Positions 24,329 to 29,000 of a DNA stretch of 64,000 nt are shown piece after piece. Both the position numbers and the translations under genes were made by a program. Location of the stretch: NCBI GenBank assembly GCA_016926735.1, contig JAFGOA010000066.1, forward strand, positions 1 to 64,000, in the 5' to 3' direction. The notes below the pieces were generated by a model. That model did not search any database and was not told the origin of the DNA. It saw only the letters and a list, made by a program, of their open reading frames with translations. The stretch's first letter is position 1. Every line of letters starts with the position of its first letter. Source of the DNA: Promethearchaeota archaeon. Lineage in GTDB: Archaea; Asgardarchaeota; Lokiarchaeia; Sigyniarchaeales; SOKP01.

Positions 24329-24525
24329 TTATAAATCTAAGGATATTAGTTCTTTTATCTTATTATTATCTAATGTTGTAAGCCAAGATTCCCCACTTAT
24401 TATAATTGAATCAGCTAATTCCTTTTTTTCATCAATAAGTTCGTCAATCTTTTCTTCAATAGTTCCAACAGTAATAAATTTATAGACATTAACATTCTTT
24501 GTTTGTCCAATTCTATACGCTCTAT
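24329..24525 (-). pseudogene. Orphaned duplicate 3' end of the SNF2 helicase gene (probably the original C-terminus)
   Basis: [35 protein letters not shown]..ELISL duplicates the SNF2 end; similarity starts abruptly at 24525. Confidence 0.8.
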
Positions 24526-26052
24526 TCTTTTTTTTTTCATTCAATAATATAATATTTATTTGTTTATATTTTCTTTCCGACTCCAATAACCAAGCGGGGG
24601 AATTTCAATTTTAAATTTTCTGCAATAATCACCAACCAAATGACTATTTATTGATATCCCAAAGAATTTTTTATGTAATTTTGCAATTTTACTATGGGGC
24701 ATTAACCAGACAAGATTTTCTAAGTCATTTTTTGAAAATCTAAATTTGATTTTTTCTTTTGCTAATTTAATAGCACGCTCAGTTTTTTCTATACTAGTTT
24801 GTAACCGAATTCTTTTTCTAGGCATACTTTTTTTATAGTTATTTAGCATTTTACTAAATAAATCTGCTCCCAAAGTTAATCTATATACAGATCCTTTAAT
24901 AAATCTATTATCTATATATCCTCCTTTACTTTCTTTATATTTTATATCAAATTTAATTTTAAAAAATTCTTTTATTCTACTTAGAAATTTTTTACTCCTA
25001 CAGTTAATTAAAGAAGTCCCTTGATCTCCATCTCCATCAAAATATCCAAGTAAAAAAGCTAAATATAAATCATTGGTATTAAGAGATGGTAATTCAATAT
25101 GATATGATTTTCTTTTACCAACTATAAATCCATGTTTTATTAGATTCTCTTTAAATTTTCGACATTGGAAAGTCATTTCTAAATAATCTGCATCTATATA
25201 ATTTTTTACTCTTTGTTTTCCTTTCCTATAAGTTAAATACTTAATATTCAGACCAATAGTATTTATATATCTAAATATTTGTAAACCATCCTTTTTACTA
25301 ACTCCAACACCAATAACATGATCCTTATATTTTGATGGTTTTTGAATCCATCCTTCAGCAAATAACCATCCTAGCCAATAACTTTTTTCTTTATTATCAA
25401 TTACTTTAAAATAATCAGGATTTAAATTTGGATGATAAATCAGATATTTCTTTTTGGTGGATTTTGGTAATATATTTCTATGTTGATATTTTTCAATAGT
25501 TTTGATTACATTTATACTTTTTTTACCAAATCGAAATTTTAAATTGATTATATATTCTTCAAGAAAATCTAAAGCAATTTTAAATTCTGGATTATACTTT
25601 GCTTTATGAAAATAATTTTCAATATGTCTTTTTGACTGACCTAAAATTAAGCTTAATTTTTCATTACTTAATCTTTTCCTATATATAAATTGAACTTGTT
25701 TTTTTAATTCATTAAGAAACATTTGAGTTGTAATGGTCTCTTCGTTATTATCTATGTTAATATTTTTTATATATTCAAAAAAATCTTCTTTTTTCTCATC
25801 CATAATAATTCTATATTAGATAATTTTAACAATTATTTATCTAAATTCAAATTTAAATATCAGGAGTCAAGAAACTTATTAATTCTTCTTTATTAAACTT
25901 AAAGATAAAAGATCCACTTTGAATGTCAATAATTTTATTTGCTAAATTACGTTTTTGTTCAAGTAAGACTTCAATTTTTTCTTCAATAGTTCCAAGCGTA
26001 ATGAATTTATAAACATTCACATTTGAGGTCTGTCCAATTCTATAAGCCCTAT
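24526..26052 (-). mobile_element. Putative homing element: replacement SNF2 3' end + free-standing LAGLIDADG endonuclease
   Basis: Bounded by the two homologous G|AT AGR GCN TAT AGA ATT GGA CAR junctions (26052 and 24525). Confidence 0.65.
24556..25803 (-). CDS. Double-motif LAGLIDADG homing endonuclease
   Basis: YWLGWLFAEGWI and AFLLGYFDGDG motifs, C-terminal HTH-like ..PPLGYW; own ATG and stop; no intein termini. Confidence 0.85.
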   Translation of the reverse strand: MDEKKEDFFEYIKNINIDNNEETITTQMFLNELKKQVQFIYRKRLSNEKLSLILGQSKRHIENYFHKAKYNPEFKIALDFLEEYIINLKFRFGKKSINVIKTIEKYQHRNILPKSTKKKYLIYHPNLNPDYFKVIDNKEKSYWLGWLFAEGWIQKPSKYKDHVIGVGVSKKDGLQIFRYINTIGLNIKYLTYRKGKQRVKNYIDADYLEMTFQCRKFKENLIKHGFIVGKRKSYHIELPSLNTNDLYLAFLLGYFDGDGDQGTSLINCRSKKFLSRIKEFFKIKFDIKYKESKGGYIDNRFIKGSVYRLTLGADLFSKMLNNYKKSMPRKRIRLQTSIEKTERAIKLAKEKIKFRFSKNDLENLVWLMPHSKIAKLHKKFFGISINSHLVGDYCRKFKIEIPPLGYWSRKENINK

Positions 26053-29000
26053 CTGTAGCCTGATCTTGAGTTGCGGGATTCCAAGGTGAATCATAATGAA
26101 ATACGGTTGTTGCTTTTGTAAGATTAATTCCAGTTCCACCTGCTTTTAGAGAAAGTATTAAAATAGATGATTTTTTACTATTATCAGATTGAAATTCTTC
26201 AATTATTTTCTTTCTATTTTCTGTAGAAACACTTCCATGATAATATAAAATAGGATGTTTGTATTTATAGGTAAATAATTCTTGTAATAAATCACCCATC
26301 TGGGTATATTGGGTAAAAATTATGCATTTTTCATTATTATCTATAACATCCTCTACTTTTTCTAATAATCGCTCAAGTTTTGGAGAAAGAGAGATAATTT
26401 TGCTAAATTTTTTTTTAGAAATATTTTTAGTAATCGATTTTTTTAAATATTGGTATGGGTGATTACATATTTGTTTAAATTTAGTTAGTAATCCTAAGAT
26501 AAAGATATTTTTATTTTTTTTATTTGAATCTATCTTGTCAAATTCTTCTAGAGAATCATTTACTAATTTTTTATACAGTGATAACTGAAGCTCACTTAGT
26601 TCTACATAAATTTTTATTTCATTTTTCTCGGGTAAATCTTTTATTATCGATTTATCTGTTTTAACTCTCCTAAGGATAAATGGTGCAATAATTTTTTTTA
26701 ATTGCAATATAACATTTTCATCAGAATATCTTTCTATTGGAATAATTGTATCCTCTTGGAATTTTTTTCTTTCTCCTAGTAATCCAGGATTTAAGAATTC
26801 AAATAAAGTCCAAAGTTCTTCCAATCGATTCTCTATTGGAGTACCACTTAAACATGCTTTATATTGACCTTTTAATTCATAAATAGCTTTAGTCTGTTGG
26901 GCGCTAAAATTCTTTATATTTTGGGATTCGTCAATAATTATTCCTGTAAAAGAAATTGTCTTTAAAAAATCTATATCATTTCTTACTGTAGCAAATGAAG
27001 ATAATATAATCCTATGAGGTGTTAAGTTTTTTATAAATTTAGAGATATTTTTTTCACGATTGGGACCATGGTGAAGAATAATTTCAAGATTAGGAGCAAA
27101 TTTATTTAGCTCATGTTTCCAGTTATACAACACAGATGTAGGACAAATAATCAATGTACTTCCAAAATTATCAGGATATTTTTCTTTAAAATATAATAAA
27201 AGAGCAATTATTTGTATAGTTTTTCCTAAGCCCATATCATCTGCTAAACATACTCCAAAATTTAATTCACACATATTTACTAACCAAGTTAAACCATCAT
27301 TTTGATAAGGTCTTAACTTACCTTTAAATGTTTTTGGAGGATTTACTTTTTCAAATTTTTTTAAAGTTTTTATTTTTCTTACTATATCTTCAAATTGATC
27401 TTCAATAACAATATCATAACTAATTCCTTCCTCTAATTGTACCTTTCCAGATAATCCTAATTTAAGAGCATTTAAATAATTAATATTCCCTTGTAACTGA
27501 TTAAATACATTAGAGGTTTTATTAGAAGTAATAATTTGTTTTAAATTGTTGATGTCTTGTTGTTCTACTAAAATCCATTTATTTTTCCAGTTTATTAGAG
27601 ATTGGTTTGAATTTATTATCTTCTCTATCTCGTGATTTTCTATAATTTGATCCCCAAGCTTAATCTCCCATTTATATCTTAATAAATCAGATAATTGAAA
27701 AATAGGATTTAATACATTGGAAGATACACGGTTTTTATGATTTTTTTGAGGACTTATTACTATTTTAGAAGTTAGTCTCTGTTTTCCTCCAATATTAAAA
27801 ACATCGGGGAGAATTATGTTGTATCCACTTTGAATCAGCAAATCTTTAGGAAAACTAAGAAAATTCATGACTTCATTAGAGTCTATTTCAATATCTTTTG
27901 GATATGATTGATTTAGTGCTTTTTTTATAGGAGGATATATAATTGTTGCTAAATAAAGGCTTTTTAACACAGACTCAATCAGATCCTCTTTATTCTGCAT
28001 TTGATTTTTTATTTTTTCAACATTTTTATTTCCAAGCCAAAAATCTTGTAATGAGACAAGCTCTATAGAATCTCCTGTGGATATATAAAATTTTAAAATC
28101 CAATTATGCTTATCTTTTTCAGGATATTCTAATTGAATTGTAAGTCTAATTCCATATTTAGCTATTGATAGTTGGATGGAATCTGCCCAATTATTTATAA
28201 GTTTAGGAATAATTGATTCATGTAATTTAGAAATATTGAAAGAATTATTCTTATTTATCAAAGATTTCAAAAATTTATAATCCCAACTTAGATTGAACTC
28301 TCGATTTTTTTCTTTTAAGATATCTATATTATAAAATTCATCTAAAGAGTGGAAATTTGTAGATTTTAAAATATATCTAATTAGAGAATCTCCTAAATTT
28401 TTAATATAATGTGAAAAAATATAAGAATTATGCCATAATTCATCAGTATATTGAATTCTTCTACTTTTATTTGATTTATTTTGATATTTATAACTTGCTG
28501 GAATATTAAATGCTTGCCATGAGCTATTATTTAAAATATAATTAAATCGGTCATGATCTTTTTTAGTTTTGAGAAGAATTTGCCATTCACATTTAAAAAC
28601 TGAATCTGTTTCTTTTTTAAAGTGTGGAACAAAATTACCTTGCGATAAGAGTTCAAAATTTAACTTTGTTAATAAAGCCCAAGTTATAACAGAATTAGAT
28701 AAACTACTTTCTGATTTATTATGAGTATTAATATCATATATTTCTAATTTATTTAATAATCTAGAGGCAGGAATTATAGGTAAGATTTTTGAATTTATTC
28801 TTTTGATTATAAAATAATCTTTTTTGAGTATAGCTAAATTGATATAACATGACATTAAATTATCAACTGGGATTTCTGGAAATGTTTGAGAAATGTTTAA
28901 AACTATATCTTCTTCAGAATTAGATTCCTCAATCCATAATATAAAAAAATTTGAATTTTTTGGAATTTCTTTTGTGTTTGAAAATAAAGAAAATTTACTT

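Follow-up and report, generated by a model that had tools for sequence, protein, structure and literature searches.

A probable LAGLIDADG homing element that spares an SNF2 helicase gene by supplying a second gene end in a Lokiarchaeota-type archaeon

We analysed the first 64,000 nucleotides (nt) of contig JAFGOA010000066.1, read on the forward strand and hereafter called the window, from the Promethearchaeota archaeon assembly GCA_016926735.1. This assembly is a 3.9-Mb metagenome-assembled genome (MAG) of an Asgard archaeon of Lokiarchaeota type in 238 contigs; it is designated G000 here, and the comparison set comprised 41 related genomes. On the minus strand of the window, a gene for an SNF2-family helicase is followed by a free-standing LAGLIDADG homing endonuclease gene and then by a second, orphaned copy of the SNF2 3' end. 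We consider it very probable that this locus is the occupied allele of a splicing-free homing element, in which the SNF2 gene is kept whole by a spare gene end. This reading, first put forward in an initial annotation made from the sequence alone, is favoured by empty alleles in related genomes, by a tree of the SNF2 tails, by duplicated gene ends at other Asgard loci and by contigs of other samples that bridge the junctions. The end-duplication strategy is known mainly from fungal mitochondria; new here are the archaeal chromosome, the cellular helicase gene as a target and the Asgard-wide family to which the endonuclease belongs.

The SNF2 gene (25853–29062, minus strand, as are all features described for this locus) is an intact open reading frame (ORF) encoding 1069 residues, with Pfam matches to SNF2-rel_dom (1.7e-69), Helicase_C (1.3e-24) and DUF3670 (8.9e-18). 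Its translation ends in ...FLTPDI*, the full end string being ...SGSFIFKFNKEELISFLTPDI*. The last 66 codons are borne by the element, and this replacement 3' end, which we call tail A (25853–26052), runs in frame from the AT of the Asp codon of helicase motif VI to the stop codon. Because an in-frame copy of these codons precedes the endonuclease gene, SNF2 stays a full-length ORF. An AT-rich spacer of 49 nt (25804–25852) leads from the SNF2 stop codon to the start codon of the endonuclease gene (24556–25803, 415 residues), and a 30-nt spacer with an A-run (24526–24555) leads from the endonuclease stop codon to the orphan tail, forming the right junction. The orphan (24329–24525) begins at the AT of the same Asp codon, has no start codon upstream, is open for 64 codons plus a stop, and reads ...GESWLTT...ELISLDL*. 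It abuts the gene for a SWIM zinc-finger partner protein (23389–24309; PF04434). Tail A and the orphan are identical at 136 of 202 aligned nt and at 33 of 65 residues. The order given in the initial annotation, an intact SNF2 gene, a two-motif LAGLIDADG ORF, a start-less second tail and the SWIM gene, is seen in full, and its limits of 24526–26052 (about 1.53 kb) are right for the minimal inserted element, which comprises tail A, spacer, endonuclease gene and spacer over 1527 nt. These boundaries are placed where the homology to the orphan starts, and the same ones were found in a distant host, at locus L058.

SNF2 orthologs were identified in 29 of the 41 related genomes, G000 included. The tails of 28 other loci were read, and 27 of them combine the sequence RWWNP with the native ending GESW...L..LKEL; the remaining one, in G017, is a hybrid that we describe below. 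Two genomes of the same genus, G002 and G001, encode an SNF2 protein of 1069 residues ending in ...SGESWLSQL...KELISLNL*, with the SWIM start codon, ATG or GTG, 27–30 nt after the stop codon. Because the native tail is followed by SWIM at this short distance, both were classified as empty alleles, and they provide the uninterrupted SNF2-SWIM arrangement with a GESWL...ELISL ending that had been anticipated. The orphan in the window is nearest to the tail of the empty G002 allele, with 56 of 64 residues and 166 of 195 nt identical, as compared with 33 of 65 residues for tail A against the same native tail. A maximum-likelihood tree of 32 tails, which was built from 65 alignment columns only and whose bootstrap did not converge, likewise places the two kinds of tail separately: the orphans of the window and of G003, a further member of the genus, are joined with G002 (98/86) within the clade of the genus (97/93), and five of the six tail A sequences form a clade of their own (96/99), the sixth, P0079, lying on a long branch elsewhere. 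Judged by these alignments, the orphan is the displaced native SNF2 tail, as the initial annotation had it, and tail A is foreign; the orphan, presumably unexpressed, abuts SWIM as a remnant of the native 3' end. Occupied alleles are present in G000, G003 and L058, to which P0073, P0075–P0077 and P0079 are added as judged by their tails, and empty ones in G002, G001 and 25 other loci. The element is therefore a presence/absence polymorphism at one precise site among related genomes.

The 415-residue ORF encodes a monomeric LAGLIDADG enzyme by its motifs, its Pfam match and its fold. It carries two motifs in one chain, WLGWLFAEGW (approximately residues 143–152) and LAFLLGYFDGDGD (approximately residues 248–260), which are conserved across an alignment of 42 family members, made up of the window ORF and 41 relatives. 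Residues D256, G257, D258 and G259 are invariant in these 42 sequences, and the acidic residue that closes the first motif is E or D family-wide (pattern YWLG[WF]L[FY]A[ED]). In LAGLIDADG enzymes, the acidic residues at the close of each motif form the catalytic pair. The match to PF14528 (LAGLIDADG_3) is marginal and covers one half of the protein only (24.8 bits versus a cut-off of 22.5; E = 2.7e-5), and a sequence search of the PDB gave four matches at E ≤ 1 (best E 0.09), none of them a LAGLIDADG enzyme; because of this, the fold was predicted. In the AlphaFold model (mean predicted local distance difference test score 91.8), two units of a helix and four strands form the pseudo-dimeric alpha-beta-beta-alpha-beta-beta-alpha fold. 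Foldseek searches with this model against the PDB ranked I-AniI, the bI3 maturase, I-Tsp061I, I-SceI, PI-PfuI, the TliVMA intein and I-DmoI at the top. All 28 matches at E ≤ 1e-3 were within the first 47 ranks, and those 47 are all LAGLIDADG enzymes, maturases or LAGLIDADG-bearing inteins. The core is predicted to span approximately residues 125–335, with helical extensions of about 120 residues on its N-terminal side and about 80 on its C-terminal side that may bind DNA.

Tail A appears to have travelled with this enzyme. At L058, a record labelled as an Odinarchaeota MAG, the same gene order is contiguous on one independent record. The SNF2 proteins of the window and L058 are about 48% identical overall and 68–88% identical over the last ~110 residues, and the endonucleases are 73–77% identical. 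The L058 orphan begins at the identical nucleotide (ATAGAGC...) and already holds TGA and TAG codons. Between the two hosts, the Nei–Gojobori method gave a synonymous divergence (dS) of 0.74 for the endonuclease gene and 0.66 for tail A (83 codons), with a ratio of nonsynonymous to synonymous divergence (dN/dS) of 0.21 for each; in the SNF2 helicase core, dS was saturated (proportion of synonymous differences, pS, 0.71) and dN was 0.31. The similar dS of tail A and the endonuclease gene, set against the saturated core, indicates that tail A shares the younger history of the endonuclease gene, and the ratio of 0.21 indicates that both are under purifying selection. By these substitution estimates, by the identity profile and by the step in divergence against G003 described below, the history of the element is incongruent with that of its host gene, as expected of horizontal spread. 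A census of the 120 SNF2 proteins most similar in the tail contained seven of tail A type, that of the window included, all with SPWNP in place of RWWNP, as well as two hybrids, 110 proteins with RWWNP and native-type ends, and one that was unclassed. The longest contigs of three tail A proteins equal in size those of close endonuclease homologs (10446, 18787 and 10844 nt), which suggests that these tail A proteins share contigs with endonuclease homologs. A scan of viral contigs returned only distant LAGLIDADG relatives (≤34% identity) and no vector for the SNF2 element.

Comparisons at closer range point to recent movement. G003 is 92–95% identical to G000 in DNA over the region; there, the 3' part of the endonuclease gene lies together with the orphan and SWIM on a single contig, and the SNF2 body is found on a different one. 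Over the flank at 22304–24503, which contains a GTPase gene, SWIM and the orphan, the two genomes show 132 mismatches in 2200 nt (6.0%). Between 24504, which lies about 20 nt within the orphan, and 25035, the count falls to 7 in 532 nt (1.3%; Fisher p = 8.6e-7 versus the flank), and at 26412–26911 it is 4 in 500 nt; deeper in SNF2, most bins hold 2–13 per 100 nt. Contigs from salt-marsh samples show 0–2 differences per piece across 25147–26502 (X2 records 12–15, X3 records 21–23, X4 records 29–32) and 7–17 differences per 150–290 nt in the region of SWIM and the orphan. The tract of low divergence to G003 and the salt-marsh strains extends from 24504 to 26911 and takes in some 850 nt of SNF2 on the upstream side of the insertion point. 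We read this tract, which spans some 2.4 kb and diverges by about 1% where its flanks diverge by about 5–6%, as the trace of recent homing with asymmetric co-conversion, although a selective sweep by ordinary recombination may lie behind it.

The tract also bears on the explanation that competes best with a mobile element, namely that the locus is a relic or has been domesticated: it would have arisen by homing, the endonuclease would since have lost its activity or been co-opted, perhaps as a regulator that binds DNA, and inheritance of the locus would be vertical only. This is conceivable in that the endonuclease is known here from its gene and predicted structure alone, that some 200 extra residues lie in its helical N- and C-terminal domains, that some relatives are fused to long N-terminal zinc-ribbon regions, and that the decay of the L058 orphan makes some insertions old. 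We nevertheless consider it unlikely, given the dN/dS of 0.21 over the whole ORF between two hosts, the conservation of the acidic motif residues in 42 members, the occurrence of the element in hosts whose SNF2 bodies have diverged so far, and the centring of the low-divergence tract on the element against both G003 and other samples, which argues for recent transfer.

Far less probable is a tandem duplication of the SNF2 3' end followed by insertion of an unrelated endonuclease gene into the new spacer, in which case tail and endonuclease gene would not move together. Genes are at times duplicated in part, and both tails belong to the same SNF2 family, but tail A is more similar to tail A of the distant L058 host with the same endonuclease (46 of 65 residues) than to the orphan next to it (33 of 65). 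The common clade of five of six tail A sequences, the agreement of its dS with that of the endonuclease gene and not with that of the SNF2 body, and a junction that is nucleotide-identical in two hosts all contradict this history as well.

An assembly chimera, or a collapse of strains that joined two SNF2 alleles around an unrelated ORF, had to be considered for a MAG of many contigs, the more so as the G003 contigs break inside the region. It can hardly be maintained in view of the contiguous order at L058 and of contigs from three other samples. The SWIM-orphan-endonuclease junction, with its 30-nt spacer, is bridged by X2 record 10 (23843–24847), from an independent sample, and the junction of the endonuclease gene with the SNF2 tail, with its 49-nt spacer, by X2 record 13 (25534–25873) and X4 record 31 (25757–25907); parts of the region uncovered in X1, X3 and X4 were given no weight. 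The chimeric assembly named in the initial annotation as a possible source of error is excluded by contigs that span both junctions. Most known archaeal LAGLIDADG enzymes reside in inteins or in rRNA or tRNA introns, and this usual setting is what would speak for an intein or self-splicing intron mis-read as a free-standing gene, a reading with almost nothing left to it here, since SNF2 is complete without splicing, a stop codon and the 49-nt spacer stand between it and the ORF, Pfam detects only LAGLIDADG_3 in the ORF and no Hint or intein domain, and Rfam gave 0 matches at E ≤ 1 over 23300–29200, so that no group I or II intron is present at the locus.

The occupied alleles also differ from the empty ones upstream of the insertion point. 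Codon alignment with orthologs that read RWWNPAVE(K/D)Q identified a recoded tract (26060–26089; TCA CCT TGG AAT CCC GCA ACT CAA GAT CAG), in which, 9–40 nt upstream of the junction, RWWNPAVE has become SPWNPATQ through the changes AGA TGG to TCA CCT and GTA GAG AAA to ACT CAA GAT. In the census, all 9 occupied or hybrid alleles have this tract and none of the 110 RWWNP alleles does, with one allele unclassed. The initial annotation had located the recoding in synonymous differences next to the junction; these differences exist, but they vary among empty alleles too, and the consistent change is the non-synonymous tract at 26089–26060. This tract is a candidate for immunity changes or for co-converted donor flank. 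Because the left junction rebuilds the left half-site together with a homologous tail, some change is needed against self-cutting. We infer that the recognition or cleavage site of the enzyme, which is probably active, would include the recoded codons, and the recoded tract may be protective; the recoded tail may also, as proposed earlier, destroy the cut site.

Based on these observations, we propose the following course of events. The enzyme would cut element-free SNF2 alleles in or near the DNA coding for motifs V–VI. The break would be repaired from an occupied allele, with the SNF2 body providing homology on the left and the orphan tail on the right, and the repair would copy in tail A and the endonuclease gene and co-convert some upstream SNF2 sequence. 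The donor copy would probably be protected by the recoded tract, as its left junction would otherwise rebuild the target. At a later stage, the element could be lost through recombination between the two tails, which would leave a hybrid and probably immune SNF2 tail. The allele of G017 (protein P0080) has this appearance: the SPWNP tract and the sequence LLEEKRDLA, both of the element type, are followed by SGESWISEL...DLISI, the native type of its genus, with SWIM directly downstream. We found no endonuclease gene of this family in the G017 genome, and the simplest reading would be that it was lost by recombination between tail A and the orphan. P0078 represents a second hybrid tail, with an SPWNP-type tract and a GESW ending.

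The search for further Asgard LAGLIDADG ORFs between duplicated gene ends, which the initial annotation had recommended, identified more of them. The genome of the window itself holds two endonuclease paralogs besides the SNF2 element. On contig C50, the last ~41 codons of a DhnA-type aldolase gene occur twice, once on either side of one of these paralogs, which encodes 382 residues. We identified 20 family loci in 13 of the 41 related genomes, 5 of them with an upstream/downstream duplication score of at least 80; the duplicated genes are SNF2, the aldolase (G000 and G007), a phosphoglucomutase-like gene (G020) and a short zinc-ribbon tail (G009). A scan of GTDB species genomes yielded 134 stretches, of which the best 80 were examined; some of these 80 loci are probably shared with the 20, because both sets were drawn from the same species genomes. 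Their records are nearly all Promethearchaeota, Helarchaeota, Hodarchaeota, Thorarchaeota, Hermodarchaeota, Atabeyarchaeia or Odinarchaeota. Duplicated host-gene ends scored above the maximum of the null (62, from 60 mismatched flank pairs) at 14 of the 80 loci, and at least 122 at 7. The duplicated 3' ends belong to SNF2, phosphoglucomutase-like, acyl-CoA-synthetase-like, radical-SAM-like and other genes, often with the endonuclease gene on the opposite strand, and the duplicated 5' ends to a Dam-type methylase gene, a DUF1848-like gene and a GH38-like gene; these host genes were named by eye from their sequences. In the protein database, 71 proteins matched the window enzyme at E ≤ 1e-5, and 10 of these were 55–77% identical to it.

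Some features of these loci stand apart from the duplications. Four of the 80 (L070, L103, L147 and L148) come from records labelled as bacterial MAGs (Nanopelagicaceae, Bacteroidales, Clostridia); L070 and L103, whose matches cover most of the protein at 35–40% identity, may be Asgard contigs that were binned wrongly. The third paralog of the window's own genome (L005, G000:C163 493–1332) is truncated to 279 residues and has a partial IS607-type serine recombinase as its neighbour, and an ORF resembling TnpB of the IS200/IS605 type (L004 2694–3971) lies 3 kb from the aldolase element; both names were given by eye.

Several findings weigh against the interpretation of the SNF2 locus as an active homing element that carries a spare gene end. 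The metagenome contigs yielded no accepted empty-allele joint: all joints that skip the region have sides of ≤24 nt and, as this is AT-rich sequence, they were not read as empty alleles. With tail A, SNF2 lacks the family-wide GESW...L..LKEL ending and may therefore not be fully functional. Over the ~10 bp next to the insertion point, the only differences between occupied and empty alleles are synonymous, at positions that also vary from one empty allele to another; self-immunity would consequently have to rest on the recoded tract upstream. None of the best 120 tails, among which the donor of tail A might have been expected, represents a native SNF2 lineage with tail A and no endonuclease. 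The SWIM gene of the window and of G003 has its start codon out of frame or a CTG instead of it; since an in-frame ATG is retained in the other occupied allele, L058, this loss is not a consequence of the insertion. At the level of the family, flank duplications are limited to the 14 of 80 loci, and several members lie within long ORFs with zinc-ribbon extensions. In the phosphoglucomutase pair of G020, the in-frame tail is nearer to the congener G010 save for its last five residues, and the KEK(F/Y)S end is found in the orphan, so that either copy may be the native one.

The long frames among these (L038, L048, L053, L047, L051 and L041, from G013, G014 and G011) have 560–912 residues, with the endonuclease as their C-terminal part and CxxC...CxxC motifs at the N terminus; they could be fused forms or upstream host genes that are read through.

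At two sister elements, the boundary of the duplication coincides with a candidate intron of the bulge-helix-bulge (BHB) type, which is recognised by its canonical geometry and cut positions. In the aldolase gene, a 32-nt insert lies between ...GTA GA and T ATG GGA... in G000, G007, G018, G017 and G002, that is, in 5 of 21 related loci (G000:C50 at approximately 42188–42883, corresponding to L165 and to L004 8183–9000 on the minus strand; L149, L151, L156 and L169). Its removal restores the frame and the sequence GAVGVD-MGRNIFQ, as found in the 16 loci without the insert. The insert can be drawn as a helix-bulge-helix-bulge with the helix GCGU/GCGC, the bulges AGA and AAA and a 9-bp hairpin; across the five sequences, 96.9% of cells pair, with compensatory change at three pairs, versus 23–41% in slid controls. 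The tail duplication of the paralogous aldolase endonuclease element starts exactly at this insert point, and, among the carriers of the insert, the endonuclease gene is present in G000 and G007 only. A second copy of this hairpin at the junction between endonuclease gene and orphan was considered and is not supported by the DNA. The aldolase gene has another insert, 30 nt long, after the DHG codons in G000 (L165), G001 (L164), G002 (L169), G011 (L166) and G021 (L163); this insert is absent in G007, G015, G022, G016 and G010. It holds an in-frame stop codon (DHG|KYV*LIHTHE|YFGN) and has a central helix CAUG/CAUG, and its hairpin is kept by compensatory changes (UAUGUAU/AUACAUA, UAUACAU/AUGUAUA, GUGCAU/AUGCAU).

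The GH38-like gene presents a comparable arrangement. At L115 (2336–2646) and L127 (2487–2803, minus strand), the functional copy has a 30-nt BHB-like insert immediately after THWDRE, the removal of which gives THWDREWYLPF, and THWDREWY is uninterrupted in 14 related loci. The orphan 5' copy, across the family endonuclease gene, ends exactly at THWDRE. A different 30-nt insert occupies the same site in G004 (L298), in whose genome we found no family endonuclease. We regard the 30–32-nt inserts in the aldolase and GH38-like genes as candidate BHB mini-introns in mRNA, proposed from their predicted pairing and their distribution. The initial description of the element as splicing-free accordingly stands for SNF2, which is without an intron, and may not extend to these two sister elements, where a candidate mini-intron of about 30 nt sits at the junction.

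The closest counterparts in the literature are the mobile endonuclease ORFs (mORFs) of fungal mitochondria, reported (PMC3630166, PMC4019555) from Allomyces macrogynus atp6, Glomus sp. atp6, atp9, cox2 and nad3, Rhizopus atp9 and Mortierella cox2. In these, a gene core is followed by a foreign C-terminus inserted in frame, an ORF of the LAGLIDADG (or GIY-YIG) family, and the displaced native terminus (C*). The native copy resembles that of relatives most closely, in contrast to the foreign inserted one, and hybrid genes result. The window element is like an mORF in its working but is not a member of that set, as it lies on an archaeal MAG contig and not in an organelle. The Asgard targets are moreover cellular genes (the SNF2 helicase, the aldolase, the phosphoglucomutase-like gene and others), the Asgard endonuclease has an ORF and a start codon to itself as well as additional helical domains, and the Asgard family also duplicates 5' ends, in either orientation.

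Intronless and collaborative homing in phages offers a second comparison, for which the relevant part of PMC6083498 describes T4 SegF and SegG, and cyanophage S-PM2 F-CphI with the psbA intron. In that account, a free-standing endonuclease gene beside or inside a conserved gene spreads when its product cuts the endonuclease-free allele and repair co-converts the flanks, much as we propose for SNF2. The enzymes treated there are of the GIY-YIG, HNH or Endo VII families, lie between genes and are described without gene-end duplication, in contrast to the LAGLIDADG enzyme with a duplicated end in the window. The F-CphI/psbA system, in which the intron blocks self-cleavage, resembles the sister elements with a mini-intron at the junction; its intron is described as group I, whereas the Asgard candidates are of the archaeal BHB type and about 30 nt long. 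A trans-splicing system with a free-standing endonuclease in a prokaryotic or phage protein gene likewise has a device that keeps the host protein functional, but there two halves are joined by protein splicing in trans, whereas the window uses a redundant DNA gene end and has no intein domain. With I-DmoI, I-Tsp061I and PI-PfuI, the window enzyme shares fold, motif type and archaeal hosts; those enzymes are carried by BHB introns of rRNA or tRNA or by inteins, unlike the free-standing gene in a protein-coding gene found here, and their sequence similarity to it is too low for a PDB sequence match at E ≤ 1.

A full-text literature search, with subscription journals and supplementary files outside its scope, returned no report of a gene-end-duplicating homing element in Asgard archaea or Lokiarchaeota. 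The one relevant mention in the Lokiarchaeota search, in a passage of PMC8813620, is an rRNA-type homing endonuclease in a Heimdallarchaeum element. The nearest literature on Asgard BHB introns is a preprint on tRNA introns, from which the terms mRNA, homing and LAGLIDADG are absent.

Taking the sister loci into account, we tentatively advance a broader hypothesis, which we rate as possible though somewhat short of probable. Asgard archaea would host a large, active family of free-standing LAGLIDADG genes that colonise protein-coding genes by means of spare 3' or 5' ends, with no inteins or catalytic introns; in some lineages, mini-introns of about 30 nt of the BHB type would in addition split the target, amounting to an archaeal form of collaborative homing. 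If true, then in the prokaryotes most closely related to eukaryotes, homing endonucleases would drive the gain and spread of mRNA introns and the formation of chimeric gene ends. The sister loci link endonuclease mobility to candidate mini-introns in archaeal protein-coding genes. As empty, occupied and scarred alleles are known, the whole homing cycle is open to study in Asgard populations. The element also accounts for the chimeric ends of genes and for orphaned gene fragments in these MAGs, and it is a potential source of new long-site nucleases whose natural targets can be inferred.

The remaining observations concern the neighbouring and host genes. In the SWIM gene of the window, the conserved N-terminal frame is open from a CTG codon at 24309–24307, and the first ATG is at 24135. 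Around this start (24300–24331), comparison with the GTG start of G001 shows 11 additional nt in both the window and G003, which leave an ATG/GTG out of frame and the CTG in frame; the strains in runs X2 and X4 are also without one A at 24325. PADLOC returned generic SNF2 similarity only for the helicase (models ZorD, DpdE and DrmD) and no match for SWIM or the endonuclease, and we make no claim that the locus is a defence system. The SNF2 orthologs of G032 (L034, C1:509199–510794), G035 (C5) and G028 (C87) align with the query in two pieces within one open frame, with a gap of about 85–120 nt or an overlap near query residues 326–330, which may reflect a lineage-specific insertion at one site of the helicase.

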